In this document: in pieces, positions 4,061-47,379 of the stretch | Numbering within the stretch: position 1 is the stretch's first letter | Layout: every line of letters begins with the position of its first letter | From: Candidatus Dormibacteria bacterium | Lineage (GTDB): Bacteria > Chloroflexota > Dormibacteria > Aeolococcales > Aeolococcaceae | Direction: 5' to 3' | Assembly: GCA_050012735.1 (NCBI GenBank) | Contig: JBEKGP010000005.1 | Coordinates: forward strand, 1 to 54,907 | Length of the DNA stretch: 54,907 nt | Position numbers and translations under genes: made by a program | The notes under the pieces: generated by a model | Seen by the model: the letters and a program-made list of their open reading frames with translations, nothing else | Told to the model about the DNA's origin: nothing | Databases searched by the model: none

Positions 4061-4075
4061 GAGCGCGCCTCCGGC

Positions 4076-31010: not shown

Positions 31011-31382
31011 ATGGCCGCCAAGGAGCACTGGAAGACCGAGCCCGACGATCACGATTACCCGGCCGCCTCCGACTACCTGAGCCTGATCATGGACAAGGGA
31101 GAGGTCAGCAACGCGGTGGCGGCACTGCGCAAGGCCGCGATCACCCACTACAAGGCCAAGGATCTGTTGAGGGCCAGCCGCCTGGAGCTGCTGCCGGCCG
31201 ACAACGTCCATGTCAAGAAGGACCTCGGCAAGGTCCAGGCTGGGAACCTCCTCTCGCCGGTCCTGCTGATACGTGGTCGGGTGGATGCCGACGTACCGCT
31301 GACGGTCGCCGATGGGTTCCACCGGATCTGTGCCAGTTACCACCTGGACGAGGACGCGGACATCCCCTGCCGGATCGTCTGA
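31011..31382 (+). CDS. Conserved hypothetical protein, ParB/sulfiredoxin-like fold
   Basis: SD AGGAGA; LSPVLLIRG...VADGFHR matches the ParB/Srx DGxHR motif; typical codon usage. Confidence 0.75.
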   Translation: MAAKEHWKTEPDDHDYPAASDYLSLIMDKGEVSNAVAALRKAAITHYKAKDLLRASRLELLPADNVHVKKDLGKVQAGNLLSPVLLIRGRVDADVPLTVADGFHRICASYHLDEDADIPCRIV

Positions 31383-31605
31383 CCTCGGGGGTTCGCCGCC
31401 GGCCCGCGCGTCCTATGAGCCGTCCTGCAGCGCGGCTCGCCGTGGTCTCCGGCGTGGTGCACGGTACGCCGTGGTTTCAGGCGTCGTATCGCTGCGCGAT
31501 ACGACGAACGCACTTCGCTCGGCCGGGGCGCTCTCGCGCCCCCTCGCGGTCTCCGCCCTACCCGAGCGCTCGCGGTTGGCGCGGCGCCCGGGCGGGCGGC
31601 GGCCT

Positions 31606-31629
31606 GGGCACGCCTCAGCAGGCGTGCCC
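31606..31629. terminator. GC-rich hairpin just downstream of glnA (likely terminator)
   Basis: GGGCACGCCT-CAGC-AGGCGTGCCC, a 10-bp perfect stem 13 nt after the glnA stop; no U-tract. Confidence 0.5.
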
Positions 31630-31642
31630 GGCCTCGCTCCGT

Positions 31643-33085
31643 TTAGGCGTCGTAGTAGAGGAGGAACTCGTAGGGGTGCGGGCGGAGGGCCACCGGGTCC
31701 ACCTCGTTCTCGCGCTTGTAGGCGATGTAGGTCTCGATCACGTCGGGGGTGAAGACGTCCCCCTTGAGCAGGAAGTCGTGGTCGGCCTCCAAGGCGTCGA
31801 GGACCTCGGGCAGCGAGCCCGGGAGATCCTTGACCTGGGCGGCCTCCTCACCCTCCAGCTCGTAGAGATCGGCCTCGATCGGCTTGGGCGGCTCGATCTT
31901 GTTGGCGATGCCGTCCAGACCCGCCATCAGCATCGCGCTGAACGCGAGGTACGGGTTGCAGGTGGGGTCGGGAGAGCGGAACTCGAGGCGCCGCGCCTTG
32001 GGCGAATCGCTGTAGGTCGGGATCCGGATGCAGGCGCTGCGGTTGCGCGCGCTGTAGGCGAGCTTGATGGGTGCCTCGTAGCCGGGGACCAGCCGGCGGT
32101 ACGAGTTGGTGGTGGGCGCGGCCAGAGCGAGCAGTGCCGGAGCGTGCTTCAGCAGGCCGCCGATGTACCAGCGACCGAGGTCGCTGAACAGCGCGTAGCC
32201 GTTCTTGTCGTAGAAGAGCGGGACGCCACCCTGCCAGAGCGACTGGTGGACGTGCATCCCGCTGCCATTGTCACCAAAGAGCGGCTTGGGCATGAAGGTC
32301 GCGGTGTAGCCGTTCTGAGCGCAGACGTTCTTGACGATGTACTTGAACTGCAGAACGTTGTCGGCCATCATGGTGAGCGGGCCGAAGCGCATGTCGATCT
32401 CGGTCTGCCCCGCGGTGCCGACCTCGTGGTGGTGCACCTCGATATCCAAACCGGACTCGAGCATCTTGAGGACGATGCGGCTGCGCAGGTCCTGGAGCTG
32501 GTCGGCCGGCGGGACGGGGAAGTACCCCCCCTTGAGCTTCGGACGGTAGCCGAGGTTGGCACCGTCGCGACCACTGTTCCAGATGCCCTCATCGGAATCG
32601 ATGTGGTAGTAGCCCTCGTGGGAGTTCTGGTCGAAGCGCACCGAGTTGAAGATGTAGAACTCGAGCTCCGGGCCCCAGTACGAGAGGTCCGCCACACCTG
32701 ACTTGGCCAGGTAGGCCTCAGCCTTCTTGGCGATGTAACGCGGGTCGCGCGAATACGGTGCCCTGGTCAGCGGGTCCTTGACGTCGCAAACGATCGCCAG
32801 GGTCGGGACTTCCAAGCACGGGTCGATGAAACAGCGAGTCGGGTCCGGGAAGAGGAGCATGTCGCTCTCGAAGATCTTCTGGAACCCGCGGATCGAGGAG
32901 CCGTCGAAGCCGATCCCGTTCTCGAAGAGGTCGTCGTTCAACTCGCTCACCGGGATGCTGAAGTGCTGCCACGTGCCGGGCAGGTCGGTGAAGCGCACGT
33001 CCACGAACTTGACGCCCGCTTCCTTGGCCCGCTTGATCACGTCCTTCGGGGTGGCCCCGCCTGCTTGTTTGGTCTCGTCTGCCAT
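31643..33085 (-). CDS. glnA: Glutamine synthetase type I (GSI-beta)
   Basis: [19 protein letters not shown]-beta insertion, [47 protein letters not shown] adenylylation-site motif. Confidence 0.97.
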
Positions 33086-33220
33086 CCACTTCCCCTTGCA
33101 AACCGCTGGCCGCCGGCACGGCCCATGGGGCCGAGCCTCTGCTATCACAACTGAGTGAGCCTACCGAGTTACAGGACGGATCCGCCATGGACTCTGAGGA
33201 CGAGAGGCGGGATTGGGGGC

Positions 33221-33270
33221 TTGTGCGCCGAGCACAAAAGGGTGCCCGGCGACTTGCGTTGATTGCACAG
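33221..33270. promoter_or_regulatory. Two TTGTG-N7-CACAA-type boxes upstream of glnA
   Basis: TTGTGCGCCGAGCACAA (33221-33237) and TTGCGTTGATTGCACAG (33254-33270); minus-strand -10 TAGGCT at 33158-33163. Confidence 0.68.
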
Positions 33271-33344
33271 ATGTCGGGATCGCCTCGACCGCCGGACGGG
33301 AGGCGCTTCAGGCCGCGCGATGCAGTCTGGCGGCGGCCAGGGCG

Positions 33345-33632
33345 CTAGGCGCGCGGCTTGATCTCGTCGAGCTTGGCCCGGGCTCCCGCCTTGTCCTTGA
33401 AGTACAGCTTGTTGATGTCGACGTAGGCGATCTGAGCCGTCGGGACATCCTCCTCGGCGAAGATCGCGTCGACGGGGCACGGATCGACGCATGCGCCACA
33501 ATCGATGCATTCATCGGGGTCGATGAACACCATGCGGTCGTCGTCGGTCTCGTGGATGCAGTCCACGGGGCAAACCTCGATGCAGGCCTTGTCCTTGAGG
33601 TCAACGCAGGTTTCGGTGACGATGTAGGTCAT
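33345..33632 (-). CDS. fdxA: Ferredoxin (FdxA-type, 3Fe-4S/4Fe-4S)
   Basis: [23 protein letters not shown]...[22 protein letters not shown]. Confidence 0.93.
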
Positions 33633-33717
33633 TGCAGCCGGAGTCTAGCAAAGGCCGGCTCGGAATTCGGCCGGCGACCGGGGAAGGCCCCCTGCCCGGC
33701 ACGGGTACGCCGCCCGG

Positions 33718-34086
33718 TCAGTGGCCCCAGTGCTCGGCCTCGAGGTGGCGGATGGTCAGGTCCCCCCGCTCCCCGGTCCGGATGCGCACGGCCTCGTCGA
33801 CCGGGAGGATGAAGATCTTGCCGTCGCCGATCTCGCCGGTGCGGGCGGCCGCGGCGATCGCCTCGACGACCGCCTCGACCCTGGAGTCCACCACCACCGC
33901 CTCGACCTTGACCTTCCGCTGCAGGGAGATGTGGACGCGGGTGCCCCGGTACATCTCGGTGTAGCCACGCTGACGGCCGCAGCCCAGCACCTCGGTGATC
34001 GTCAGCCCGGACGTCCCCAGAGTGTCGAGGGCGTCCTGGACGGCCTGGAGCCGATCCGGCCGGATGATGGCCTCCACCTTCCTCAT
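33718..34086 (-). CDS. glnK: P-II family nitrogen regulator
   Basis: EAIIRP, G.GRQRG.TEMYRG T-loop, TGEIGDGKIF, RIRTGE; ATGA overlap with amtB. Confidence 0.95.
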   Translation of the reverse strand: MRKVEAIIRPDRLQAVQDALDTLGTSGLTITEVLGCGRQRGYTEMYRGTRVHISLQRKVKVEAVVVDSRVEAVVEAIAAAARTGEIGDGKIFILPVDEAVRIRTGERGDLTIRHLEAEHWGH

Positions 34087-35552
34087 CTCGTCGTCTCTCC
34101 TGGGACTGCGGCGAGTCGCTGACGAGTCGCCCCGGCAATAGCGTCAGGGTGAATATAGGCCCCTCCGGGCACCGGCATGAAGCTCTCCGGGTAACCCCAC
34201 ATGCCGTGCTCGCTGATGTCGAGGCCCTCGATCTCGTCGCGCTCGCTCGCCCTCAGCCCAACCGTCCTCTTGATGATCCAGAAGAGACCGAAGGAGAGGC
34301 AGAAGACGGTCGCGAAGATGGAGAGCACCGCCGCCGCCTGGGCGCCCAGCTGGGCCCAGTTCCCCGTGTAGAAGAGCCCGCCCCGGCCGACGCCGTCGAC
34401 CTTGGCGAGCAGGGGGTCGGCGAAGAGGCCGCAGGAGAGCAGGCCCCAGACGCAGGCCAGTCCGTGGGCGGAGAGGGCTCCGAGGGGGTCGTCGATGAAC
34501 TTGTCGATGAAGTAGACACCGAAGACGACGATCACCCCGGCGATGGCACCGATGATCAGGGCGGCCAACGGCTGAACAAATCCGGACGGAGCCGTGATGG
34601 CGGCCAGTCCCGCGATCGCCCCGTTGCCGATCATGCCGACATCGAGGCTCTTCTGCCGGACGTAGATGACGGTCATGGCGGAGAGCGCCCCGGCGGCCGC
34701 CGCCAGGTTGGTGACGATGAGAACGTCGGCGAAGTGCAGGTTGAGGGCCTCGAAGGTGGAACCCGGGTTGAAGCCCATCCACCCGAACCAGAGGATGAGC
34801 ACGCCGAGCTGGGCGAGCGGCATGTTGTGCCCCGGGATCGCGTTGGGCTTGCCGTCGCGGCCGTACTTCCCGATGCGCGGCCCGAGCAGGAGGAGCCCGG
34901 CGAAGGCGGCACTGGCACCGGTGAGGTGGACCACGCCCGAACCGGCGAAGTCCTGCACCCCGAGGCCGGCACCCAGCCAGCCACCACCCCACACCCAGTG
35001 GCTGATCAGAGGGTAGATGAAGCCGGCAAAGGGGATGGCGAAGAGGATGTAGACGATGAACTTCGTCCGCTCCAGCATCGTCCCCCAGACGATCGCGAGG
35101 GAGATGGCGCAGAAGACGAACTCAAAGAAGAATTTGGCCGCCGCGGGGACGTCCGACCCGCGAAGGGCGGGCAGATCCAGTGTCGAGCCCGGGGTGAACG
35201 AGGGGAAGAAGCCTGCCCCGCCGCCGATGAGGTGGCCGAGGAATCCGCTCCCGGCGCCGAAGGCGAGGGCGAAGCCCACACCCCACCACATGATCGAGCT
35301 GATCGAGAGGTTGACGATGATCTTGGCCACCACGGTGCCGACGTTCTTCATGCGGGAGAAGCCGACCTCGAGCATGGCGAAGCCGGCCTGCATGAAGAGG
35401 ACCAGCATCCCGGCGAGGATCACCCAGACGGTGTCGACGGCGACGCCCGCGCTCTGGGCCGTCACCTGAGTGGCGGCATGGGTGACGAGCGGGAAGGTGG
35501 CCCCGACGATGGCCAGGCTGCCGCCGGCGCGAACGCGCGCGATTGGTCGCAA
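34083..35552 (-). CDS. amtB: Ammonium transporter
   Basis: FMQAGFAMLEVG, HWVWGGGWL, DFAGSGVVH, WFGWMGFNPGS, IDDPLGALSAHG. TTG start inferred from a GGAG SD. Confidence 0.95.
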   Translation of the reverse strand: MRPIARVRAGGSLAIVGATFPLVTHAATQVTAQSAGVAVDTVWVILAGMLVLFMQAGFAMLEVGFSRMKNVGTVVAKIIVNLSISSIMWWGVGFALAFGAGSGFLGHLIGGGAGFFPSFTPGSTLDLPALRGSDVPAAAKFFFEFVFCAISLAIVWGTMLERTKFIVYILFAIPFAGFIYPLISHWVWGGGWLGAGLGVQDFAGSGVVHLTGASAAFAGLLLLGPRIGKYGRDGKPNAIPGHNMPLAQLGVLILWFGWMGFNPGSTFEALNLHFADVLIVTNLAAAAGALSAMTVIYVRQKSLDVGMIGNGAIAGLAAITAPSGFVQPLAALIIGAIAGVIVVFGVYFIDKFIDDPLGALSAHGLACVWGLLSCGLFADPLLAKVDGVGRGGLFYTGNWAQLGAQAAAVLSIFATVFCLSFGLFWIIKRTVGLRASERDEIEGLDISEHGMWGYPESFMPVPGGAYIHPDAIAGATRQRLAAVPGETTR

Positions 35553-35619
35553 GTGAAGATCTCCGTGCCAGACCTGATCCTGCGGCGCCCAACCTAGCCG
35601 AGTTGGCCCACGGAGGACG

Positions 35620-35670
35620 GTGGGCGCCGCGCACCAAATGATGGCCAGGTTTTCTGGACGCAACGCACAA
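35620..35670. promoter_or_regulatory. Degenerate TTGTG-N7-CACAA-type boxes upstream of amtB
   Basis: GTGGGCGCCGCGCACCA (35620-35636) and CTGGACGCAACGCACAA (35654-35670); minus-strand -10 TAGGTT at 35591-35596. Confidence 0.55.
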
Positions 35671-35764
35671 AGGCCGCCCCCGGCCCTCCACCGCTGAACG
35701 GGGAGGGTCGGGAGTGCGGCCATGTGGAGGCGAGGCGACGGGGCGCTGCGCGCGCCCCTCCCAG

Positions 35765-37372
35765 CTACGAGGCCACGGCAGAAGGGTGGGGGTGACGCAC
35801 CCGGGCCGGCCGTCCGAGGCGGCTGCTGTTCCAGGCAAACCAGGCCGCTCCGGCGAAGAACCAGACGACGACGATGAGGACGGCGGTCAGCGCGTCGCTC
35901 TGCGTCTGCGAGCCCACCACGGGCACGCCGTTGACCTTGAGGTTGCCCGCCGTGAAGGCCAGGTAGAGAACGCCGAGCAGCATGGCCAGGTTGGCGACCG
36001 CCCCGAGGAAGGGCACGGCCCGGTGCTTGATGAAGCCTCGCTCATGGGCGCTCCAGAAGGCGACCAGGGCGATGACGTTGGTCGCGCCGTAGACGAGGAA
36101 GGTGCCGATGTTGGAGCCGTAGATGATGACCGCAAGGTGGTCGGTGTTGACGACACCGTAGATGCCGAGCAGGGCGCTGACCCCGCCGAGGATCCAGACC
36201 CCCATGTGGGGGGTGGCGAACCGGCCGTGGAGCATGCCGAGGATGGAGGGCATCTCCTTGTCCCGACCCATCGCGTAGGTGATCCGGACGCCGGTATTGA
36301 GGCAGGCGAGCATGGTCCCGAAGAGGGCGATGAGGACGGTGGCGGCCACGATCAGGGCGAGCACCGTGCCCACGCTGCCTCCGAAGACGATGTCGCCCAT
36401 GTTTTTGATCATGGTGCCGATCGGGGCCGAGTCGGCGGCCGCGGCGGAGTAGCCGGTGAGGCTGCCGCCGCTCACCGACCTGCCCACCACCATGTTGGCG
36501 GCGAAGTACTCGAACATGTACATCACCAGTCCCTGGATGGCGAGCGACAGCAGGATGCCGCGGCGGATGTCCTTCTTGGGATTCTTTGCCTCGGCCCCGA
36601 GCGAGGTTATGGACTCGAATCCGACCAGGAGCAGGATGGCGATCGTGCCCTGACCGAGGATGCCTGTGAAGCTGTGGTTGCCGGTCAGCACGGAACCGAT
36701 GGTGTTGTCGTAGTGCAGCCCCGGGTGGGTGACCCGGAAGACGATGGCGAAGAGGGCAAAGGAGACCAGCGCGACCAGCTGGATGACGTTGATCACGATC
36801 GCGGTCATGGTCGACCCGCTGATGCCCCGGAAGGCGACGTAGGTGTTGAGCAGGGTGAAGATCAGGACCACCCCGATCAGCAGCCCCGTGGAGGGCGAGT
36901 GCCCGGAGGCGATGCTGTAGAGGTATCCGAAGAGGATGCCGCCGAAGGCGGCCATGATCCCGGGGTAGATCCAGTAGTAGAGGTGGGCCAGCCAGCCCAC
37001 CGAGAACTTGGCCACCCGGGCGAGGCTGCGGTGGTGGGCCTTCTCCTTGTCGAGGAGCGCGGCCTCGGCGAAGTAGTAGGAGGACCCGGTCCCGGCCCGC
37101 GGATAGCGGTTGGCCAGCTCGGAGTACGAGTACGCGGTGAGGAAGGCCAGGATCAATGCGAAGGCGAGGCCGATCCACATGTCGCTCGCCGTCGCCACGC
37201 CGCCGACCGACTGGCCCGCCTGACTCTGGAAGGTGGTCCAGAGAAAGGCTCCGGGCGCGATCAGGGCCATGGCGTTGACGGTGACGCCGGTCAGGCTGAG
37301 CGTCTGCTTCATCCCCCCCGTGCCGCCAACCGCGCTGGGACCGGCCTCCACTTGTCTGGTCTCGATAGCCAC
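35765..37372 (-). CDS. APC-family amino acid/amine permease
   Basis: About 12 TM segments; MALIAPG, YSELA..YP.AG, LLLVGFES...GAEAKNPKKDI, R.TYAMGRD...P, HGRFATP; SD GGAGG. Confidence 0.92.
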   Translation of the reverse strand: MAIETRQVEAGPSAVGGTGGMKQTLSLTGVTVNAMALIAPGAFLWTTFQSQAGQSVGGVATASDMWIGLAFALILAFLTAYSYSELANRYPRAGTGSSYYFAEAALLDKEKAHHRSLARVAKFSVGWLAHLYYWIYPGIMAAFGGILFGYLYSIASGHSPSTGLLIGVVLIFTLLNTYVAFRGISGSTMTAIVINVIQLVALVSFALFAIVFRVTHPGLHYDNTIGSVLTGNHSFTGILGQGTIAILLLVGFESITSLGAEAKNPKKDIRRGILLSLAIQGLVMYMFEYFAANMVVGRSVSGGSLTGYSAAAADSAPIGTMIKNMGDIVFGGSVGTVLALIVAATVLIALFGTMLACLNTGVRITYAMGRDKEMPSILGMLHGRFATPHMGVWILGGVSALLGIYGVVNTDHLAVIIYGSNIGTFLVYGATNVIALVAFWSAHERGFIKHRAVPFLGAVANLAMLLGVLYLAFTAGNLKVNGVPVVGSQTQSDALTAVLIVVVWFFAGAAWFAWNSSRLGRPARVRHPHPSAVAS

Positions 37373-37385
37373 GGGAGCCCTCCAT

Positions 37386-37498
37386 TTGTGCGGTGGACAC
37401 AACTGACCACGTGGCAATGAGACTAGCTGGAGGACCCCACCGATCAGAACGCCACTTTAGCCCCAAGATCCGGCCGTTATTTTGGGCGCTCTGCCCAA
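37386..37498. promoter_or_regulatory. Two TTGTG-N7-CACAA-type boxes flanking the APC permease promoter
   Basis: TTGTGCGGTGGACACAA (37386-37402) and TTGGGCGCTCTGCCCAA (37482-37498); minus-strand -10 TAGTCT at 37420-37425. Confidence 0.68.
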
Positions 37499-37598
37499 CG
37501 TCGGATCAAATGGGCCTGGCATCGTGATGGTTTCAGCCTCAACGATGCTGCTGCGAGACCGCCACGCTGAGCCTGCCGCCGGGGTCCCCTGAGGGGGC

Positions 37599-38933
37599 TC
37601 AGAGGTAGCGGTCGAGCTCCCAGTCGGTGACATGAGCCGAGAACTGCTGCCACTCCAGTCGCTTGGCCTCGGCCAGCCGCTCGACCAGCTCCGAGCCCAG
37701 GGCGTCGACGATGACGTCGTCGCTCACCAGGGCCGCGACCGCCTCGTTGAGCGAGCTGGGAAGGGAGCGGACGTAGCGGCTCTCCACCGCCTCGGGGTCG
37801 AACTCGTACGCCTGCTCCTCGAGCGGAGGGGACAGCGGAAGCTCCCGCTCGATGCCGTCCAGGCCGGCGGCGAGCATGGCAGTGAAGGCGAGGTGGGGGA
37901 TGCAGGCGGCATCGGGGCAGCGCAGCTCCACCCGAGTGTCGGTGCCCTCGGCCGGGCTCACCCGGGGGACGCGGATCAGAGCGCTCCGGTTGTTGTGGGC
38001 CCACGTGATCTGGGCGGGCGCCTCGTAGCCGGCGATCAGCCGCTTGTAACTGTTGACGACCGGGGCGGTGACCGCGGCCAGCGCGGGCGCGTGCTCGAGC
38101 TGGCCGGCGATGAAGTGGCGGGCCAGCGGCGAAAGGTGGTACCGATCCTCCGCGTCGAAGAACAGGTTGGCGCCATCGCTCGTGCGGAGCAGCGTCTGGT
38201 GAGTGTGCAGACCGCTCCCGCTCACGCCGGCGAGGGGCTTGGGCATGAAGCTTGCACGCAGCCCGTGGGTCCCGGCCATGGCCCGCGCTGCGACCCGCAG
38301 CAGGAGGACCGCATCGGCGGCGGCGAGAGCCCCCTGGGAGGCCAGGTCGATCTCGTGCTGACCGCCGGCCACCTCATGGTGGCTGCTGCCGACGTCGATG
38401 CCCAGCTCCAGCAGGGTCGTCACCAGCTGGTCCCGGGCGCGGGTGCCCGCGTCGAGCGTGTCATCGAAGTAGCTGGCGGTGTCACTGGAGCGTGGCCGGC
38501 CACCCTCGGCCAGATCAAAAAGGAAGAATTCGACCTCACAGCCGACGTGGTAGGCAAAGCCGAGGTCGGCGGCGCGCTGGAGCTGCCCGGCCAGCACGGC
38601 CCGTGCGTCACCGGAGAAGATCTCGCCGTCCGGAGTCCGGAGGTGGCAGAAGACGCGCATCACCGGGCCGCCGTCCGCCACCTCCCAGGGCACCGCGGTC
38701 AGCGTCGCGGGATCGGGAACCAGGTACATGTCACTCTCGAGCACCCGGGCGAAACCCTCGATGGCCGAACCGTCGAACCACGCTCCCCGCTCGCAGACCT
38801 CGGCGAACCGCGAGGCGGGGACGTTGACACAGTTGACGGTGCCGAAGAGGTCGACGAACTGCAGCTGCAGGCGCCGAGCTCCCGCCTGCTCGAGGCGGTG
38901 CACGGCGGCGGCGACGTCGTCAGGCTCGTTCAT
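37599..38933 (-). CDS. Glutamine synthetase family protein (GSI-alpha-like paralogue)
   Basis: FDGSAIEGFARVLESDM, CEVEFF, HHEVAGGQHEI, KPLAGVSGSGLH, KRLIAGYEAP, NRSALIRVP, VELRCPD. Confidence 0.92.
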   Translation of the reverse strand: MNEPDDVAAAVHRLEQAGARRLQLQFVDLFGTVNCVNVPASRFAEVCERGAWFDGSAIEGFARVLESDMYLVPDPATLTAVPWEVADGGPVMRVFCHLRTPDGEIFSGDARAVLAGQLQRAADLGFAYHVGCEVEFFLFDLAEGGRPRSSDTASYFDDTLDAGTRARDQLVTTLLELGIDVGSSHHEVAGGQHEIDLASQGALAAADAVLLLRVAARAMAGTHGLRASFMPKPLAGVSGSGLHTHQTLLRTSDGANLFFDAEDRYHLSPLARHFIAGQLEHAPALAAVTAPVVNSYKRLIAGYEAPAQITWAHNNRSALIRVPRVSPAEGTDTRVELRCPDAACIPHLAFTAMLAAGLDGIERELPLSPPLEEQAYEFDPEAVESRYVRSLPSSLNEAVAALVSDDVIVDALGSELVERLAEAKRLEWQQFSAHVTDWELDRYL

Positions 38934-39925
38934 CGATGCTCCAGAAGGATGGTGATGACCACGGCAAGGACGATGAACAGCGTGAAGCCGGCACCGATCA
39001 GACCGCCGAGGAGAAGTATCCGCCGATCGGTCATCGTCGAGCCGGCGCGCTCCGGACCGAGCACGAACTGGGCCAGGTCGATGTCGTCGAGATGCTCGAG
39101 GTCGTGGAGCATCTCTGCGGCCGACTGGTAGCGCTCCTCCGGATCCTTGCGGATCGCCTTGTGGATCACCGCGCCCAGGGGCGGCGACACGGCTCGATTG
39201 CGTTCGTGGAGAGGCGTCGGCGGATCGTGGACGGTCTGGCTCATGACGGCCAGCGCGTTATCCCCCACGAAGGGCACCTGGCCGGCCAGGAACTCGTAGA
39301 GCATGATGCCAAGCGCGTAGACATCGGTCCGCTGGTCCCCCCGCTTGCCCTCTATCTGCTCGGGCGCCATGTAGTCGGGGGTGCCCAGGCGGTCGTTGAG
39401 ATATCGCCACGTCACGCGCCGCGCGCCCGCCATCAGGGCGATGCCGAAATCGAAGAGCTTTAGCTGCCCCTGCGCGGTGACCAGGACGTTCTCCGGCTTG
39501 AGGTCGCGATGGGCGATGCCGTGAGCATGGGCGTGAGCCAGCGCGCCGGCGAGCTGCCTACCGTATCCGACCGCCTCATCGACACCGAGTGGCAGCCGGC
39601 CCCGCAGGTTCTGGCGGAGGGTCTCGCCCTCGACGTACTCCAGCACCAGGTACGGACGGCTGCGGTCGTCGCCCACGTCGAGAGAGCGCTGCACGTTCGG
39701 ATGGTCCAGGCGGCGTGCGATGGCCGTCTCTCTGCGAAAGCGCTCGAAGGTCTGCGGGTCCCCGATGATTGCGAGTGACGGCACCTTGAGCACCACCCGC
39801 ACCTGGGTGCGCTCGTCGATGGCCTCGTAGGCCTCGCTGAAGCCGCCCTCACCCAGCCTCCGCACGATGCGGTAGTGATCGACGACGGAGCCTGCGCTCA
39901 GCTGGCCCTCGGATGCCACCGTCAT
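38930..39925 (-). CDS. Hanks-type Ser/Thr protein kinase with a C-terminal TM anchor
   Basis: LGEGGFS, VVLK, HRDLKPEN, DFG, GTPDYMAPE, DVYALG; terminal hydrophobic helix; ATGA overlaps at both ends. Confidence 0.95.
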   Translation of the reverse strand: MTVASEGQLSAGSVVDHYRIVRRLGEGGFSEAYEAIDERTQVRVVLKVPSLAIIGDPQTFERFRRETAIARRLDHPNVQRSLDVGDDRSRPYLVLEYVEGETLRQNLRGRLPLGVDEAVGYGRQLAGALAHAHAHGIAHRDLKPENVLVTAQGQLKLFDFGIALMAGARRVTWRYLNDRLGTPDYMAPEQIEGKRGDQRTDVYALGIMLYEFLAGQVPFVGDNALAVMSQTVHDPPTPLHERNRAVSPPLGAVIHKAIRKDPEERYQSAAEMLHDLEHLDDIDLAQFVLGPERAGSTMTDRRILLLGGLIGAGFTLFIVLAVVITILLEHR

Positions 39926-40755
39926 CTCCACGGAAGCCAGCGCCGCCCACGGTCCGGGGCCCGCGCCTCGACGGGCCCCGCGATCCGGGCGACAATCACG
40001 CTGACATTATCCGGAGCCCCCCTGGCGATCGCAACCTGGATCAGAGAGGCGGCGACGGCCCCGGGGTCGAGGTCGGCGGCCACCTCGTTGACGATCTCCT
40101 CACGGGTCAGCTCGCTCCACAGGCCGTCACTGCAGAGCACGAACACGTCGCCCTGCTGAATCGGGCGGCGGCTGATGTCGACGTTCACAAAGAGTTCGGC
40201 GCCCAGGCTGCGGGTCAGCTGGTTGCGAGCCGGATGATGAACGGCCTGCTCCGCGGTGATGATGCGCAGCCGGAGCATCTCCATGGCCTGGGTGTGGTCA
40301 GAGGTGCACTGAACGATGACGCCGTCGCGGATGAGGTAGACGCGGCAGTCCCCGACATGGCCGATCAGCGCCTCGTGGGCGGTGAGCACCAGGGCGGTGG
40401 CGGTGGACTGGAGATTGAACGCCTCCGGGTGGCTCTGCGAATGATTCCAGATCGCGAGGTTGGCGGCGTTGAACGCCTGGCGAAGCCAGCGCTCGGGCCG
40501 GTCGGGACTGGGTTGTCCCTCGGCCAGAGTTTCGACGACCAGGTGGCTGGCGACCTCCCCCGCCCGGTGACCGCCGAGGCCGTCAGCGACCGCGAAGACG
40601 TGGAAACCGCATTCCGGATCACTGCGGACGAGCACCGCGTCCTCGTTGTTCTGGCGGCAGGGCCCGGTATCCGTGCGCCCCGCGGCACGCACCGTGGGCA
40701 CGGAGGCGAAGGGTCCCGCCGGTCTCGCCGTTTCCGTGCCGGGAGCGAGCCGCAT
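39922..40755 (-). CDS. PP2C/PPM-family Ser/Thr phosphatase
   Basis: RQNNEDA, VADGLGGH.AGEVAS, HVGDCR, LTRSLG, LCSDGL, DNVS; ATG 7 nt after TAGGGT. Confidence 0.94.
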   Translation of the reverse strand: MRLAPGTETARPAGPFASVPTVRAAGRTDTGPCRQNNEDAVLVRSDPECGFHVFAVADGLGGHRAGEVASHLVVETLAEGQPSPDRPERWLRQAFNAANLAIWNHSQSHPEAFNLQSTATALVLTAHEALIGHVGDCRVYLIRDGVIVQCTSDHTQAMEMLRLRIITAEQAVHHPARNQLTRSLGAELFVNVDISRRPIQQGDVFVLCSDGLWSELTREEIVNEVAADLDPGAVAASLIQVAIARGAPDNVSVIVARIAGPVEARAPDRGRRWLPWR

Positions 40756-40874
40756 CCCGCCAACCCTAAGGACCGGCGCCCCGGGCGGGCTAGGGTCTTC
40801 GCGTCCCACCGGTGGGGGCCCGGGGATGGGCGCAACGCCCAACACGCGCAGGACGACCGGCTTGCTCGCGCCGG

Positions 40875-42497
40875 TCAAGCCGAAGCCTGGAGGACGTCGC
40901 GAATGCGCAGGCAGAGCTGGAGATTGAGCCGGGTATCGGGATCGCTGAGGCGGAGATGTCCCACGTCCTCGATGCGCCGGAGCCGGTAGAGGACCGTGTT
41001 GCGATGCAGCTTGAGCCGCTGAGCGGTCTCGGTGGGAGAGCCATGGCACCGGAAGAATGCGTCGAGGGTGCGCAGCAGGTCCCCTCCCCCCTTCTCGTCG
41101 TAGTCCATGAGCGCACCGATGCTTTCCCGATAGAACTCGTGCACCTCGGGGTGCTGGGCCATCGAGTAGAGGAGGCGGTGGAGACCGAGATCGGCAAAGG
41201 ACACCACGCTCGCCGTGCCGTCGAGCTTGAGCCCCATGCCCAGGGCCTGTTCGGCCTCGCGGTGCGAGTTGCGGACGCCGCCGAGCCCATGCTTGGGCCG
41301 GCCGATGCCGACCGCGACGGGGACACCCCCGACCGCCGAGCGGCAATCGGCGGCGAGCTCCAGGGCCGCGCGGCGGAGGTCGCCGAGGTCGGCGCCGGCG
41401 ATGACGGCCACCGCGCCCTGGTGAGCGGCGGCGAGCACGGTCAGCTGGCGCCGCTGGGCCCAGCGCTGTACCGAGCGGACGCCGCTCTCCGGCCAACCCT
41501 GAGGGGCGGGACCCGCGGGGCGCGCTGACGGGCGCACCACCATGACGACGGACTCGTCACCCAGCGAGGCGCCGACGCGGCGCGCCCGCTCCAGCATCGA
41601 CGCCTCCGACCCGTAGGCGCCGGTGAGGAGTGCGGTGGCGAACTCCCCCTCCAGGTCGTCCCGGGCGGCGAGAACTGCCCGCTCCCGGTCCAGCTCGATG
41701 GCGCAGGCCGAGGCTGCCCGGGCGCAGCCGAGCCGGGCCAGCTGTCCCAGGTCCCCCTCCGCTCCGAGGACGGAGATGAAGCCCCCGATGCCGTCGCGGA
41801 GAGGGATGGGAGCCACCACCCGGGCAAAACCCGGAGCGCCCACCGAGAACTCGCGAACGGGAGGATTGGCCGCGAGGACGACCGAGGAGTCTGCGAAGCG
41901 GCGCACCGCCGGCATCTCCTCAGCCCACGGCCCGGCCGCCACCGCGGCGGGAATGGCTCCAGCTTCGTGGCGAAGCTCTCCCGACTCGTCCTGCCACGCG
42001 GCGGCGAGCTCCAGAAGCTCGGAGAGACGGTCGACGATGCCGGCCGGGCCGGCACTGTTGAGCGCCAGCTCCATCAGCTCGGTCTGCAACTCCTGGGCAC
42101 GGTCGTGGAGCGCGGTCCGCTGGTCCAGGATGAAACGCGTGGTGGCCTGCTGCACGTCGGCGAGGTGGGCCTGTTCGGGCAGCAGCAGCAGGGGAAGCAT
42201 CAGGCGGTCGGCCAGCTCGATCGAGGCGGCGGCCACGTCGCCGACGACAGCCGCAGCCACCCCACCCTTGTCGGCGAAGCTCTCCAGGACCCGGGTGAGG
42301 TCAAGGCGCTCATCGAGCAGCTTGATCGAGCGCACCGCGATGAAGGCGATCTCCCCTCCCTTGATCGCCTCGAAGGCGGGCGGCCGGGTGCGCAACGAGG
42401 TGGCCCAGTCGACCTGCCGCTCCAAGCCCGCCCGGCCTCCGAGCAGGTCGGTGCCAGCGGGCAGGGCACCGCGCCAGAGGTCCATCACCGTGATCAC
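40875..42497 (-). CDS. PucR/CdaR-family transcriptional regulator
   Basis: N-terminal ITVMDLW...GRAGLER.V.W PucR domain; GGDEF-like middle; C-terminal LLRTLDAF...TAQRLKLHRNTVLYRLRRI HTH. Confidence 0.93.
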   Translation of the reverse strand: MITVMDLWRGALPAGTDLLGGRAGLERQVDWATSLRTRPPAFEAIKGGEIAFIAVRSIKLLDERLDLTRVLESFADKGGVAAAVVGDVAAASIELADRLMLPLLLLPEQAHLADVQQATTRFILDQRTALHDRAQELQTELMELALNSAGPAGIVDRLSELLELAAAWQDESGELRHEAGAIPAAVAAGPWAEEMPAVRRFADSSVVLAANPPVREFSVGAPGFARVVAPIPLRDGIGGFISVLGAEGDLGQLARLGCARAASACAIELDRERAVLAARDDLEGEFATALLTGAYGSEASMLERARRVGASLGDESVVMVVRPSARPAGPAPQGWPESGVRSVQRWAQRRQLTVLAAAHQGAVAVIAGADLGDLRRAALELAADCRSAVGGVPVAVGIGRPKHGLGGVRNSHREAEQALGMGLKLDGTASVVSFADLGLHRLLYSMAQHPEVHEFYRESIGALMDYDEKGGGDLLRTLDAFFRCHGSPTETAQRLKLHRNTVLYRLRRIEDVGHLRLSDPDTRLNLQLCLRIRDVLQASA

Positions 42498-42537
42498 CTG
42501 GATCTCCAAACCGGGGGGCCGCCATCCCGATCGTTCA

Positions 42538-43878
42538 TCAGGCGCGCTCCAGGTACTGCTCCTGCTCCCACGGAGTGACCTGAGTGCGGTACTCCTTCCA
42601 CTCCAGGGCCTTGACCTCGAGGAAGCGCTCCGACAGCGTGTCTCCCAGAGCGTCGAGCACCACCTCATCCGCCTCGAGGGCGGTGATGGCGTCCTTGAGG
42701 TTGTCGGGGAGGAGCCCGACGTTGCGACGCTCCAACTCGACATCGTCGAAGCCGTAGAGGGACTCCTCGACCGGAGGCGGCAGGGGCAGGCGGCGCTCGA
42801 TACCGTCGAGCCCGCAGCGGAGCATCACGGCGAATGCCAGGTAGGGATTGCAGGACGGATCGGGAGAGCGCAGCTCCACCCGGGTGACCTCGGGACGGCC
42901 GACATGGGGGACCCGGACCAGGGCGCCACGGTTGGTGCGGGCCCAGGAGACGAAGACCGGGGCCTCGAACCCGCGCACCAGGCGCTTGTAGGAGTTGATG
43001 AGAGGCGCCAGCACCAGGCACATCCCGGCGGCGTGGTGGAGCTGGCCGGCGATGAAGTGCTTGGCGACGTCGCTCAGCCCGTAGTCGTCGTCGCCCGCGA
43101 ACGCGTTGCCGCCGTCGCCGGTCCGGGCCAGCGACTGATGGACGTGCATGCCGCTCCCCGGCTGTCCCTGGAAGGGTTTGGGCATGAAGGTGGCGGTGAG
43201 ACCGTGCTGCTGGGCGATGGCTCGGAGCGTGTAGCGGAAGGTGACCACGTCGTCCGCCGCTTTGAGCGCCTCCTGAGCGCCCACGTCGATCTCGTGCTGC
43301 CCGCACCCCACCTCGTGGTGCAAGGTGTTGACCTCGAGCCCCATGGCCCGGAGCTGCTCGGCCATGGTCTGGCGAACCGCCACGGTCGGGTCGGTGGCGA
43401 AGTCGAAGTAGCTGCCTCGGTCGTGGCGGGGCTGCACCGGCCGGCCCAGCTCGTCGCGCTCGAGCAGGTAGAACTCGATCTCCGGCCCCACCCGGTATTC
43501 GAAGCCGAGCGCCGCCGCGCGCTCGGTCGCCCGCCGCAGCGCTCGCCGGGGATCGCCCGGGTAAGCCTCTCCCTCGGGGGTCGTGAGCCAGCAGATCATC
43601 CGCCCGGTCGGCGCCTCAGCCCACGGCAGGACGGCAAACGTGGTCGGGTCGGGTACCAGATACATGTCCGACTCTGCGGTGCGGGCGACCGACTCCACCG
43701 ATGAACCGTCGAACCACACCCCGTGCTCCAGCGCCGAGGCCAGCTGGTCGGCGGGAATGGTCACCGTCTTGACCGACCCGGTGACATCGGTGAACTGGAG
43801 ATCGAGGTGGCGGATGCCGGCTGCCTGGGCTGCGGCGACTGCGTCGGGGATCTCGGGGCGGTGGCGGGGGGAGGCCAT
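42538..43878 (-). CDS. Glutamine synthetase family protein (GSI-alpha-like paralogue)
   Basis: FDGSSVESVARTAESDM, GPEIEFY, HHEVGCGQHEI, KPFQGQPGSGMH, KRLVRGFEAP, NRGALVRVP, VELRSPD; SD GAGGTG. Confidence 0.92.
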   Translation of the reverse strand: MASPRHRPEIPDAVAAAQAAGIRHLDLQFTDVTGSVKTVTIPADQLASALEHGVWFDGSSVESVARTAESDMYLVPDPTTFAVLPWAEAPTGRMICWLTTPEGEAYPGDPRRALRRATERAAALGFEYRVGPEIEFYLLERDELGRPVQPRHDRGSYFDFATDPTVAVRQTMAEQLRAMGLEVNTLHHEVGCGQHEIDVGAQEALKAADDVVTFRYTLRAIAQQHGLTATFMPKPFQGQPGSGMHVHQSLARTGDGGNAFAGDDDYGLSDVAKHFIAGQLHHAAGMCLVLAPLINSYKRLVRGFEAPVFVSWARTNRGALVRVPHVGRPEVTRVELRSPDPSCNPYLAFAVMLRCGLDGIERRLPLPPPVEESLYGFDDVELERRNVGLLPDNLKDAITALEADEVVLDALGDTLSERFLEVKALEWKEYRTQVTPWEQEQYLERA

Positions 43879-43994
43879 GAGCACCTCGGATGGCAGAGGC
43901 TCCTGACCAGAGCCTCCTGATTCGTACCCTGCGCCTAAGGATATCGGACGCCAGCTCAGGATGTCTAGAGGGAGCCCGGCCATCTTGCGCCGTC

Positions 43995-44023
43995 CCGCGC
44001 ACCAAATGAGACGGGACGCACAA
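43995..44023. promoter_or_regulatory. Putative regulator sites upstream of the GS-PucR operon
   Basis: CCGCGCACCAAATGA (43995-44009) is identical to 35627-35641 upstream of amtB and is followed by ACGCACAA as there. Confidence 0.55.
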
Positions 44024-44220
44024 GGCCCTCACGCGCCCGTGCCGGCGGGGGCGCTGCGACGGCCCCACATCCGTCCGGTGACGGCCGGACACCGCGGGAT
44101 GACGAATCGCACCAATGGGTGCAGGTGCACTACAGAACTTTGGCGTCCGTTGCTCTTGGGCGTCCCAGACCGGCCCCGGAGAATGAACCCATCCAATCGC
44201 GCTCCACGAAAGAAAGAGAC

Positions 44221-46035
44221 GTGAGCCTCCCCCATCCGACCCTCCTCAGCCCCCCCATCTCCCCGCCCTGGGCGCACCCCAGCCCGCGGGGTTCCCGTCG
44301 CGGCAACCGCCTGGACCGGATCCTGGAGGCCATGACCCGGATCAGCGCGGAGAGGGATGTCGACTCGGTGCTGGCCGCCGCGGGCGGAGCCGTCGTCGAA
44401 CTCCTCGAGACCCGCAGAGCGTCCCCGGTGATCGCCCGGGTGTACAGGATCGAACGCGACAGGATGATGGTCGTCAGCGAGCACGGCGCAGCAGCCGATG
44501 CCACCACCGTCGGGGAGAGCCGTCTCCTGATCGCCGATCCACTCATCCTGGCTGCGGTCACCGGGGACCGCACCCTGGCCGAGGCGGGAGCCTCCCCCCG
44601 CCGGATCGCAAGCCCCGTCCACGCCGGGACCGTGATGCGGGCAGTGGTGCTCGCCGAGCGGCGGGGCCGGGCGTTTCGAGACTCCGAGGTCACCATGGTC
44701 GAGGGGCTGAGGGGGATCGTCACCCTCGCGGTCTCCAACCTGGTCCACTCCCGCGGGATCGCCGGGGCAGCGGAGGAGCCGCCCGATGCGGTCACGGGCG
44801 TGATGGGCCGCGCTGCCTTCGAGCGGCACTGCCGGGAGGTGCGCGAGTCCTTCGCGATCATCTCGGTCGACGTCGACCATCTCAACCAGCTCAACAACGC
44901 CCTGGGTTGGGAGGCCGGCGACAACGCCCTTCGCTCCGTGGCCCGCGCTCTCCAGGCATCGACGAGGGAGCGTGACGTGGTCGGCCGCACCGGCGACGAT
45001 GAGTTCACGATCCTCACCATCGGGGCGGCCACCGCCGTGGTTGGCAGCGTTGCCGAGCGCATGCGTGCCGCGGTGTCCGAACTCGTCACCGGAGCCCTCC
45101 CGAGTCGGGTCAGCGTCGGCTGGGCGGTGGGCGCGGCCGGCGAGGACGCCGGCGAGGTGTGGACTCGGGCGGACGCAGCGCTCGGCCGCGCCAAGCGCCA
45201 GGGACGCAACCGCGTGGCCGGGTCGATCACCGGCCGCCCGGGGGCGGCCCCCGGAAGAGGATGGACAACCCTGCTCAGCCGGACCCTGGCCTCACAGCAG
45301 ATCCACCCTGTGTACCAGCCGATCGTCACCCTCCCGGAGGCGCGCATCGTGGCCTACGAGGGGCTGGCGCGGCCCGTCAACCTGGACGGGGCGGACAGCG
45401 TCGAGGAGTTCTTCGCCACGGCGCAGCGGCTGGGCGTGACCAATGAGCTGGACTGGATCTGCAGGCGCGCCGTGGTCCGCGGTGCCGAGGGCATCCGCAG
45501 CGACGCGCAGCTCTACCTCAACATCGACCTCTCCGCGGTCTCCGACGTTGACGAGGACGTCGAGCAGATGCTCAGCCTTCTGCGCTGGATCGGCCGGCCT
45601 CCCGCCAACGTGGTCCTGGAGATCGCCGACGCCGGCCGCTTCACCAATCTCGGTCAGCTCTCCGCTCGCGTCGACGTCTACCGCCGGGCGGGGTTCAAGA
45701 TCGGCATCGACGATGCCGGCCGGCCCGGGATTGGGGTCGACCTGCTTTACGCGACGCGCCCCGAGATCATCAAGATCGATGCCAGCGTGACCAATCGCTG
45801 CGAGGAGGTCGGGGCCCGGTCGCTCATCTTCGAATGCATCGCGCTCGCCGAGCAGATCGGCGCCGATGTCGTGGCCGAGGGCATCGAGCAGCTGAGCGTC
45901 GCCACTGAACTGATGAAGCTGGGAGTGAACCGAGCCCAGGGCTTCCTCTTTGGCAAGCCGGAGTCGCTCACCGGACCGAACCGCGAGCTCGAAGGGGAGC
46001 CCGCGTTCCTCCGGGCGGTCGCCGTCACGCGCTGA
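44221..46035 (+). CDS. GAF-like + GGDEF + EAL domain c-di-GMP metabolism protein
   Basis: DVDHLNQLN..LG..AGD, RTGDDEF, YQPIV, YEGLAR, IDDAG, IKID, AEGIE, QGFLFGKP. Start codon uncertain. Confidence 0.9.
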   Translation: MSLPHPTLLSPPISPPWAHPSPRGSRRGNRLDRILEAMTRISAERDVDSVLAAAGGAVVELLETRRASPVIARVYRIERDRMMVVSEHGAAADATTVGESRLLIADPLILAAVTGDRTLAEAGASPRRIASPVHAGTVMRAVVLAERRGRAFRDSEVTMVEGLRGIVTLAVSNLVHSRGIAGAAEEPPDAVTGVMGRAAFERHCREVRESFAIISVDVDHLNQLNNALGWEAGDNALRSVARALQASTRERDVVGRTGDDEFTILTIGAATAVVGSVAERMRAAVSELVTGALPSRVSVGWAVGAAGEDAGEVWTRADAALGRAKRQGRNRVAGSITGRPGAAPGRGWTTLLSRTLASQQIHPVYQPIVTLPEARIVAYEGLARPVNLDGADSVEEFFATAQRLGVTNELDWICRRAVVRGAEGIRSDAQLYLNIDLSAVSDVDEDVEQMLSLLRWIGRPPANVVLEIADAGRFTNLGQLSARVDVYRRAGFKIGIDDAGRPGIGVDLLYATRPEIIKIDASVTNRCEEVGARSLIFECIALAEQIGADVVAEGIEQLSVATELMKLGVNRAQGFLFGKPESLTGPNRELEGEPAFLRAVAVTR

Positions 46036-46071
46036 GGCAGGCCCGACGAGCGGAGGACCCACGCGGGTGCT

Positions 46072-46104
46072 CCGGCGCGGGGATCACGCCGGCGCGGGGA
46101 TCAC
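46072..46104. repeat. 16-bp tandem direct repeat CCGGCGCGGGGATCAC x2 at the GH1 3' end
   Basis: Copies at 46072-46087 and 46089-46104 read directly. Confidence 0.75.
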
Positions 46105-47379
46105 CCCGGTGCGGCAGATGCCGGCGAAGACCTCCGCGCTTGGCTTGGGCCGGCGCTCGAGGGTGGCTCGGTCGACCGCCACCAGACCAAACTTGGCTCC
46201 GTATCCCTCCAGCCACTCGAAGTTGTCGAAGCCGGTCCAGTGGAGGTAGCCGAGCACATCGACGCCGTCGTCGATCGCCTCGACCACCGCTCGCAGGTGG
46301 TCGACGAGGAACTCGGAGCGGAGCTCGTCATCCTCGTCGGCGACCCCATTCTCGGTGACCATCACCGGCAATCGGAACTCCTCGCTCAGCGAGACCAGGG
46401 CACGGCGCAGGCCCCCGGGGTCGATGCTCCAGCCAAGGCTGTTCCTGGTCAGCGACGGGTCCGGAACGGGGCTCACGAAGAGGCGCGAGGAGGCGCGCCA
46501 GTCGAAACGGACCCGCTCGTCGGCGTAGTAGTTGAGGCCCAGGTAGTCCAGGGAGCCCCGTAGTCCGGGCACCACCTCGCCGCTGCCGGCAGGCGGAAGC
46601 ACCCGGCCGCGCATGCAGCTCCAGAGGAACCAGCGGTTGAAGAGGAGGTCCGGTGCCCACGCCACGGAGCGGGCGGCGAGGGAGCCGGGAACTGGCCGGA
46701 AGGGCCGTTCGTGGTGGGCGATCGAGACCATCGCAGGCCGGCCGCGGGCGGCACCGCTCTGATGGAGGGCGGTCGCCGCGGCGGCGTGCATCCGGAGCAT
46801 CCCGGCGGCGGCCCGCAGGGCGAGCGCCTGCGACCGGCGGTGAGGCGGCCACTGCCCCTCCGCGTAGCCGAGGGCCATCAGGACGTTCGGCTCGTTGAGC
46901 GTCAGCCACCAACGGACCTCCTCGCCGAACGCCTCGGCGCAGGCAGCCGCGTAGCGGGCAAAGAGGCGCGGCGCTTGCGGGTCGAGAAGGCCCCCGCGGT
47001 CCGCCAGCCAGACCGGCAGCGTGAAGTGGTGAAGAGTGACCACGGGTTCCATCCCCAGCTCGCGGCAGGCGGCGACCACGGCGGCGTAGTGGCGGAGCGC
47101 GGCGAGATCGAAATGGCCCGGCTCGGGCTCCACGCGAGCCCACTCCACCGAGAACCTCTGAGCCGTGTGACCCATGCCGGCGAGCAACGCCAGGTCTTCG
47201 CGATAGCGGTGGAAGTGGTCGATGGCGACCGCCGCCGAGTCGCCGCTCTTGACCCGCCCCGGCTCGTCCCGCTCCATGCGCATCCAGTCGTTCCAGAGTC
47301 CGCCCTCAACCTGGTGGGCCGCGCTGGCGGTGCCGATCAGGAAGCCGTCTGGGATGCGCAGCGAACGGCCGGGCACCAC
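46084..47379 (-). CDS. Glycoside hydrolase family 1 (beta-glucosidase)
   Basis: GTASAAHQVEG, RFSVEWAR, TLHHF, TLNEP (acid/base), VTENG (nucleophile), DNFEW..G. Confidence 0.95.
   Translation of the reverse strand: MVPGRSLRIPDGFLIGTASAAHQVEGGLWNDWMRMERDEPGRVKSGDSAAVAIDHFHRYREDLALLAGMGHTAQRFSVEWARVEPEPGHFDLAALRHYAAVVAACRELGMEPVVTLHHFTLPVWLADRGGLLDPQAPRLFARYAAACAEAFGEEVRWWLTLNEPNVLMALGYAEGQWPPHRRSQALALRAAAGMLRMHAAAATALHQSGAARGRPAMVSIAHHERPFRPVPGSLAARSVAWAPDLLFNRWFLWSCMRGRVLPPAGSGEVVPGLRGSLDYLGLNYYADERVRFDWRASSRLFVSPVPDPSLTRNSLGWSIDPGGLRRALVSLSEEFRLPVMVTENGVADEDDELRSEFLVDHLRAVVEAIDDGVDVLGYLHWTGFDNFEWLEGYGAKFGLVAVDRATLERRPKPSAEVFAGICRTGVIPAPA

Follow-up and report, generated by a model that had tools for sequence, protein, structure and literature searches.

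A candidate PucR-family nitrogen regulon with positionally conserved 17-bp palindromes in an uncultured Dormibacterota bacterium

NtcA in cyanobacteria, GlnR in actinomycetes, TnrA/GlnR in Bacilli, AmtR in corynebacteria, NtrC and NrpR are known global nitrogen regulators, and they belong to protein families other than PucR. According to the available text of PMC9397018, their target set comprises glnA, amtB-glnK and nitrogen-source transporters. A similar set of genes was found in the window, that is, the whole stretch of 54,907 nucleotides analyzed here (contig JBEKGP010000005.1 of assembly GCA_050012735.1, contig C5 in our numbering). In this window, 17-bp palindromic boxes precede glnA, amtB and an amino-acid permease gene, and a gene for a PucR-family regulator lies in the same cluster. 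An original prediction, made from the sequence alone, had described the boxes as TTGTG-N7-CACAA and proposed a PucR protein as the master nitrogen activator.

The PucR-type regulators characterized so far are mostly activators, as stated in the available text of PMC7652997. The same text gives a 17-bp inverted repeat as the binding site of PutR and a 24-bp one for AdeR, while GabR is an octamer with two 21-bp inverted repeats, both of which are needed for strong binding. In addition, the site of IppR is 24 bp long in the accessible part of PMC13599513, and by our reading it contains ATGCG-N5-CGCAT.

Among these regulators, PutR (PrcR, the putBCP activator of Bacillus subtilis) is one of the closest known counterparts. 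It belongs to the same family, with a GGDEF-like domain and a C-terminal HTH_30 domain, and PMC7652997, in the part available, describes binding to a 17-bp inverted repeat, an activating role and a small-molecule effector. However, the window's protein was not orthologous to PutR. It reached no NCBIfam equivalog; the best was AdeR with 60.3 bits against a cut-off of 700, and the matches to CdaR, Rv1453 and PmfR were partial and sub-threshold. Furthermore, the control exerted by PutR is local, on a single catabolic operon, whereas the neighbours of the window's regulator were glutamine synthetase (GS)-like genes, amtB and glnK, and its proposed targets belong to core ammonium assimilation. The PutR box is reportedly TTGTGG-N5-CCACAA, which would have the same 6-N5-6 layout as the dyads here, with TTGTG and CACAA in common. 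The 17-bp inverted repeat that the original prediction ascribed to PutR is borne out by the available text of PMC7652997, and the exact box sequence was not confirmed in the literature.

GabR of Corynebacterium glutamicum also resembled the present system, with two inverted repeats upstream of the promoter, an oligomeric state, positive control and signs of autoregulation (available text of PMC7652997). It differed in having no GGDEF-like domain, in the 21-bp repeats lying directly upstream of −35, and in being a local regulator of GABA use. The closest solved structure was that of MabR (Rv2242) from Mycobacterium tuberculosis. It was the only PDB sequence match (9f80_A, E = 2.4e-07), a weak one of 33.1 bits, and it covered residues 283-513, the GGDEF-like and effector/HTH region. 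Its role is different, since MabR regulates mycolic-acid synthesis (PMC11617747, available part). The occurrence of a GS-like gene and a regulator in one operon recalls the glnRA operon of Bacilli, as a resemblance only. No PucR-type regulator of glnA or amtB was found among the titles and abstracts of the literature, and no work on nitrogen regulation in the Dormibacterota lineage was found among the titles. No nitrogen regulator is known to have been described for Dormibacterota, and the PucR family is not known to have been linked to the control of core ammonium-assimilation genes. The regulator family itself is known, and the role proposed for it here, in an uncultured phylum, would be new.

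The source genome (G000) was a metagenome-assembled genome (MAG) of an uncultured Candidatus Dormibacterota organism, with 2,603,987 bases in 122 contigs, 87% completeness and 70% G+C; its close relatives are MAGs from peat, fen and permafrost. The comparison within the class Dormibacteria covered the window's family (f1), a family of the same order (f2), a family of a different order (f3), and the families f4 and f5. The syntenic region was compared in 20 relatives of the window, among them the unpublished G017, which forms one row each in the tables for amtB and for GS3, the GS-like gene preceding the PucR gene. The orthologue tallies take in some or all of the unpublished G017, G027, G032, G036, G066, G103, G113, G117, G123, G125, G138, G154 and G157. 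No conclusion rests on any of these.

The sites were real and positionally conserved with near certainty, and they mark a nitrogen-assimilation regulon. It is quite likely, judged from sequence comparison, that the adjacent PucR-family protein binds the dyads. Our preferred reading, with a probability of about 0.7, is that a PucR-family activator bound near −77 would control glnA, amtB-glnK, a second amt gene, transporters and its own operon.

In the window, exact TTGTG-N7-CACAA copies occurred twice, at glnA and at the permease gene, compared with a mean of 0.00 in shuffled sequences (0 of 100 shuffles with at least 2), and the same two copies were the only ones in the whole genome. With at most 2 mismatches, the window contained 6 matches where 5.21 were expected, a number also reached by 45 of the 100 shuffled sequences, so the degenerate boxes were not above chance by count in the window alone. 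This last count is compatible with the view that the likeness of the boxes is a by-product of chance or base composition with no regulatory role. The exact copies, together with the conserved arms, the variable spacer and the fixed distance to the −10 element in two families, already contradict that view, and it was considered extremely improbable. The degenerate boxes were taken as real because they are conserved in relatives. All box and hexamer coordinates of the original prediction were correct. One of its two boxes at glnA and one of its two at the permease gene were exact, and the others have 2 to 4 mismatches. The boxes at amtB and the GS-PucR operon were near-consensus or half-conserved at the same positions in relatives, although they are degenerate in the window itself. 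From gene-aligned upstream regions, the consensus was refined to the 17-bp palindrome TTG(T/G)GC-N5-GC(A/C)CAA. The odd-length spacing of its GTG-N7-CAC core differs from that of CRP/NtcA-type and TnrA-type boxes.

The conservation of the motif upstream of orthologues had been named beforehand as a test of the proposal. With at most 2 mismatches to TTGTGC-N5-GCACAA within 350 bp upstream, a site was found in 15 of 15 loci at glnA, in 12 of 15 at amtB and in 5 of 5 at the permease gene. The control upstream regions contained none, either at the ferredoxin gene fdx (0/17) or at the PucR coding start (0/21). The amtB loci that missed were the window and L046, with 3 mismatches each, and L036, with no site. 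At glnA, amtB and the permease gene, the footprint was the same: the arms were kept and the 5-nt spacer was free to vary. In L036 (genome G014), the sequence upstream of amtB was unrelated and AT-richer, with a GTAATTAC-type inverted repeat and no dyad, which looks like an insertion or rearrangement.

The distance from box to −10 was also conserved. The original prediction gave 65-66 bp between one box and a TAGnnT hexamer at glnA, amtB and the permease gene, and the measured distances (Table 1) agreed with it and, at glnA and amtB, recurred in relatives. When TAnnnT was searched 40-90 bp downstream of the dyad centre, the centre of the glnA dyad lay 64-66 bp upstream of the sole TAnnnT in that range in 33 of the 34 f1 and f3 genomes. 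These comprised 15/15 loci of the first set (65-66 bp), 8/9 further f1 genomes and 10/10 f3 genomes. Similarly, the distal amtB dyad lay 65-66 bp from TAnnnT in 12 of the 13 loci having the site. No −35-like hexamer was evident at the glnA, amtB and permease promoters. A conserved element containing CTCGTC was observed about 20 nt downstream of the glnA dyad and before the −10 (window 33175-33215) in f1 and f3; this could be either a further site of protein contact or part of the promoter.

By analogy with its family, and from the position of the sites, the regulator would act from about −77. As a dimer or higher oligomer, it would bind the dyad, whose centre lies 64-66 bp before a −10-only (TAnnnT) promoter, and activate transcription under nitrogen limitation, with the nitrogen signal and the effector being presumed. 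Binding may be aided by a second, weaker site that stands about 33-34 bp off, one or three helical-turn multiples from the first; at amtB, the variant box sits 34 bp closer to the promoter than the distal dyad. The proposed targets are glnA, amtB-glnK, the second amt gene, the APC permease gene, a polar-amino-acid ABC transporter and the regulator's own GS3-PucR operon. At the permease gene, the effect of the exact leader dyad may rather be to damp expression. That dyad lies by the ribosome-binding site, and the PucR gene of f3 has a second site in its leader. Both would fit a PucR protein that binds the dyads but mainly represses, or acts as a dual regulator, under nitrogen excess, and PucR of B. 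subtilis is described as both activating and repressing in the available text of PMC7652997. However, the best-conserved site lies at 64-66 bp upstream of −10, a position typical of activators. In addition, the lack of an evident −35-like hexamer and the predominance of activators among the family members mentioned above point the same way, and a mainly repressing or dual role was considered very unlikely.

If the preferred reading is true, a new family joins the short list of global nitrogen regulators, with a defined operator and a fixed promoter architecture. These could be tested without cultivation by using the cloned protein and synthetic promoter DNA, and the motif could predict nitrogen-responsive genes in peat and permafrost metagenomes. 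Such results would address the gap in nitrogen sensing and response in uncultured soil and peat phyla.

The presence of the site was compared with that of the PucR gene. A position weight matrix (PWM) was built on 35 distinct orthologous sites. Since the first 15 f1 loci supplied its training data, an independent test is given by f3 and by the other 14 f1 genomes, of which 13 pass. A strong glnA site was defined as a PWM score of at least 15.5 within about 600 bp upstream of glnA; the glnA regions of G023 and G105 were too short and were dropped from this tally. With a cut-off of E ≤ 1e-40, the PucR orthologue was present in 33/37 f1 genomes and in 33/35 f3 genomes (39-42% identity), and it was found in 0/16 f2 and 0/9 f5 genomes. 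In f4, 14 of 53 genomes gave a match to PucR at about 30% identity. Strong glnA sites occurred in 28 of the 29 f1 genomes with the orthologue (the exception, G016, scores 13.3) and in 10/10 f3 genomes. None was found in the three f1 genomes that have a glnA match and no orthologue (G021, G048 and G055; maximum 11.1), in f2 (0/12, maximum 14.4), in f4 (0/12, maximum 13.3) or in f5 (0/6, maximum 14.1). Since f2 belongs to the order of f1 and f3 does not, the pattern of strong sites follows the PucR gene and not taxonomy.

The recognition helix was in agreement with this distribution. HRNTVLYRL was identical in 7 f1 and 6 f3 sequences, from the two families with a common motif, and the helix was different in f4 (HPNTLRYRL) and f2, where the dyad flanks also differ. 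In f3, the orthologue has moved away from the nitrogen genes to a place between rsfS and a lipase gene. Directly upstream of it, TTGTGC-N5-GTCTnA and a second site were found in 6/6 loci, the same half-conserved type as that of the f1 GS3-PucR operon. A homologue with 38% identity from another Chloroflexi MAG (L095) was uninformative. The predicted complex of PucR and GlnK scored 0.00 against a mark of 0.32, which is evidence neither for nor against an interaction. In G021 (L060; the loci of G048 and G055 are L119 and L120), glnA was observed directly after fdx, with about 30 nt between them.

Other candidate regulators were compared, namely the CRP-family, the second PucR paralogue, NrpR, sigma-54 activators and Rex. 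The sole good CRP-family gene (54.9 bits) was present in 23/37 f1 genomes and in 1/35 f3 genomes although both families have the motif, and thus it does not track the motif. The second PucR paralogue (contig C19) was kept in the motif-less G048, G055 and G146. Rex was considered because a site precedes nuoA, and no Rex DNA-binding domain was found in the genome. The absence of NtrC and NrpR had been suggested as a check. In this 87% complete genome, the NrpR domain PF01995 had 0 matches and no convincing sigma-54 activator of the NtrC type was found. The best match to the latter reached 32.8 bits over part of the model; the Sigma54_activat model also matches 14/14 control genomes, which indicates generic AAA+ similarity.

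Several observations weigh against the preferred reading, and some of them favour an alternative in which the dyad is a real nitrogen-regulon operator bound by another transcription factor and the PucR gene is merely a target, like pucR under TnrA in Bacillus. In f2, f4 and f5, all without the type-A orthologue (that of the window's regulator), the glnA promoters have GTG-N7-CAC dyads whose flanks differ, and the distances of these dyads to the −10 are 31, 65 and about 109 bp. The three PucR-family genes of G037 (f2) had no dyads near them. As the f2 dyads have the same geometry, with no close orthologue and none near the G037 genes, a class-wide factor of another family is possible. A perfect glnA dyad is present in G045, an f3 genome of 91% completeness in 110 contigs, and its assembly yielded no type-A orthologue. 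A site before the regulator's own gene would also be expected if a different master regulator controlled a PucR-type gene, and excerpts from the literature report PucR as a GlnR or TnrA target. Moreover, the candidates compared were the five kinds named above, and the genome has 12 genes of the OmpR type, that of actinomycete GlnR; TnrA/GlnR of Bacilli are of the MerR type and AmtR is of the TetR type.

Other counterpoints concern the evidence itself. The tallied genomes are related, so the counts overstate independence. G021, G048 and G055 are small (1.5-2.0 Mb) and are without the regulator, the dyad and the window's amtB orthologue; the joint loss of gene and motif may therefore reflect general genome reduction. 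At the GS3 promoter, a distance of 47-59 bp to TAGACA was found in close relatives only, and the 65-66 bp geometry is not common to it. The contigs of four metatranscriptome runs are 93-99% alike and hence derive from relatives; they span glnA, glnK, amtB and the permease gene, and are uninformative on starts, strand and level. Three contigs, from three of the runs, extend from glnA across the proposed −10 into the dyad, to 33226 and 33283, which means that some RNA, or carried-over DNA, passes the proposed promoter. In addition, gltB on contig C52 of this genome has no site.

Binding by another factor was nevertheless considered unlikely. The motif type tracks the PucR orthologue (present in f1 and f3, absent in f2, f4 and f5) and not taxonomy, families with the same motif also have the same recognition helix, and neither the CRP-family gene nor the second PucR paralogue passes the phyletic test. 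Furthermore, PucR-lineage genes with dyads were found beside nitrogen genes in four families with differing gene orders, and OmpR-type factors bind direct repeats, not 17-bp palindromes. For PucR as the nitrogen activator, the conserved motif, the fixed −10 distance, the tracking of the orthologue, the site of the PucR operon itself and the failure to find NrpR or a convincing sigma-54 activator are in favour, but the word "master" in the original prediction is too strong as yet, with gltB lacking a site.

A genome-wide candidate regulon was obtained with the PWM. The scan of 2.6 Mb gave 58 matches of at least 9. Among the nine top matches (at least 14.7), four were in the window (glnA, two at the permease gene, and amtB), and 8 of the 9 were non-coding by our reading. 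The five others were upstream of a polar-amino-acid (SBP_bac_3) ABC transporter, inside the aminotransferase gene preceding that transporter, upstream of nuoA, upstream of an SBP_bac_5 gene, and in a gap of 600 bp on contig C4 that contains no gene. The ABC-transporter site is also found in G013 and G015. For the second ammonium-transporter gene, which lies at a contig edge, matches of 14.2 and 12.7 were found upstream, and the site of its counterpart in G022 scores 20.7. With one mismatch allowed, TTGKGC-N5-GCMCAA gave fewer matches than the control pattern in five f1 genomes, and only zero-mismatch matches were used. The nuoA site (G000 C2:33711) recurs in G015 (C2:335828). The first gene of NADH dehydrogenase is nuoA, and a dyad there is a hint that nitrogen status and respiration may be connected.

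The gap on contig C4 contained a further element. At about 3700-3860 of contig C4 (L051) and at about 2560-2680 of L179 in G015, a block of about 110 nt with a strong GC hairpin was near-identical in both genomes. It lies in a gene-free gap of 400-600 bp between a cytosine/purine-family permease gene and an AlkZ-like gene, and in both genomes a dyad is found about 150 bp upstream. The block had no Rfam match and may be a small RNA or a small open reading frame under the same regulator.

In the wider class, the glnA dyads followed a few fixed distances. A dyad at 31-32 bp was found in 9/12 f2 genomes, one at 65-66 bp in 6/12 f4 genomes, and both in 3/6 f5 genomes, compared with 0/2 of the motif-less f1 genomes for GTG-N7-CAC dyads at 31 or 65 bp. 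A genome-wide scan of f2 with TYGTGT-N5-ACACRA showed no enrichment over the control pattern, no PucR-family gene of f2 could be linked to the dyads, and an f2 regulon was not definable. A type-B PucR paralogue was present in 53/53 f4 genomes. In 4 of 5 loci its gene immediately precedes gltB, and in the remaining one (L167) it lies about 1.4 kb before gltB; the gene has TAGTGn-N5-nCACAA upstream of itself. The type-B paralogue of f3 was not beside gltB and had no dyads nearby. In f5, a GAF-GGDEF_2-HTH_30 regulator lay 4-11 kb upstream of glnA in 5/5 genomes. Of its loci, 4 were assessable, and 3 of these have dyads before the gene; in 2 genomes, a divergently oriented orthologue of the permease in the window adjoins it. 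This regulator (e.g. L197, G047, 2333-4180) carries a GAF domain instead of the N-terminal PucR domain, and thus the families differ in their sensor module but retain the HTH_30 end.

The most economical reading of these sequences would be that a single lineage of PucR-type regulators operates throughout the class and has diverged in specificity, and f2 leaves room for another factor. More tentatively, and at somewhat short of an even chance, the class Dormibacteria may use a PucR-type lineage as its principal nitrogen regulator. The promoter geometry, with dyads at distances of 31, 65 and about 109 bp to a −10-only promoter, would then have stayed constant, and the half-site flanks, the sensor domain (PucR N-terminal or GAF) and the neighbourhood (GS-like gene with amtB, gltB, or glnA) would have diverged. 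The co-transcribed GS-like protein might report nitrogen status as GS does for GlnR/TnrA in Bacilli.

Table 1. Positions of the dyads, −10-like hexamers and genes of the nitrogen cluster in the window
Feature	Position	Strand	Details
Main glnA dyad TTGTGCGCCGAGCACAA	33221-33237		exact match; top site of the genome, PWM 25.2
Distal degenerate glnA box	33254-33270		33 bp from main dyad; 2 mismatches; genus-conserved; PWM only 4-8
Proximal amtB box, variant TGGTGC-N5-GCxCxC	35620-35636		3 mismatches; PWM 9.6; genus-conserved; centre 32 bp from −10
Distal amtB dyad	35654-35670		3 mismatches and PWM 14.7 here; near-consensus in relatives
Permease-leader dyad	37386-37402		exact; beside ribosome-binding site; PWM 18.4; at −72 in 4/5 loci
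Permease upstream dyad TTGGGCGCTCTGCCCAA	37482-37498		2 mismatches; PWM 16.2
Half-conserved site TTGTGCGTCCCGTCTCA (gene strand) upstream of GS3-PucR	44007-44023		one half-site only; left half genus-conserved
−10-like hexamer TAGGCT of glnA	33158-33163	-	66 bp from box centre
−10-like hexamer TAGGTT of amtB	35591-35596	-	66 bp from distal dyad centre
−10-like hexamer TAGTCT of permease	37420-37425	-	65 bp from centre of box 37482-37498
glnA, type I glutamine synthetase	31643-33085	-	480 aa from ATG at 33085; Pfam Gln-synt_N and Gln-synt_C; TIGR00653 646.8 bits (cut-off 429)
fdx, ferredoxin gene	33345-33632	-	
glnK (P-II)	33718-34086	-	Pfam P-II 101.1 bits; NCBIfam P-II models
amtB, ammonium transporter	34083-35552	-	TTG start at 35552; Pfam Ammonium_transp; TIGR00836 394 bits
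APC-family amino-acid permease	35765-37372	-	GTG start at 37372; Pfam AA_permease_2
GS2, GS-like gene	37599-38933	-	
Ser/Thr kinase	38930-39931	-	followed by PP2C phosphatase gene
PucR-family regulator, proposed dyad binder	40875-42497	-	540 aa; PucR N-terminal, GGDEF_2 and HTH_30 domains; no NCBIfam equivalog
GS3, GS-like, first gene of GS3-PucR operon	42538-43983	-	Pfam; TIGR00653 466.8 bits; adjoins PucR in all f1 loci examined

All genes of the cluster (glnA, the ferredoxin gene, glnK, amtB, the APC permease gene, the GS-like gene, the kinase, phosphatase and PucR-family genes, and GS3) were on the minus strand (Table 1). The identities of glnA, glnK, amtB, the APC permease and the GS-like genes given by the original prediction were supported by Pfam and TIGR profiles, as was the PucR-family gene in the cluster. 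In the PucR protein, HTH_30 scored 76.4 bits (cut-off 27), the central GGDEF-like domain 60.2 bits (cut-off 24.5) and the N-terminal PucR domain 43.1 bits (cut-off 33.5). The gene order glnA-fdx-glnK-amtB-PucR-GS3 was kept across f1. The block of permease, GS2, kinase and phosphatase genes is an insertion between PucR and amtB, present in the window and in 4 of 20 loci; L049 ends inside the kinase gene. The genes of this block at 37599-40800 overlap, and they may be co-transcribed with GS3-PucR.

Over window positions 30000-47000, the Rfam search gave tRNA only. The true start of GS3 may be the ATG at 43878, and a GGDEF-EAL gene is divergent from GS3. Between these two genes, a block of about 60 nt at about 44090-44140 was highly conserved in the genus. 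It has GTGCA-N2-TGCAC and TTGGTGCG, and probably serves the GGDEF-EAL gene as promoter or operator.

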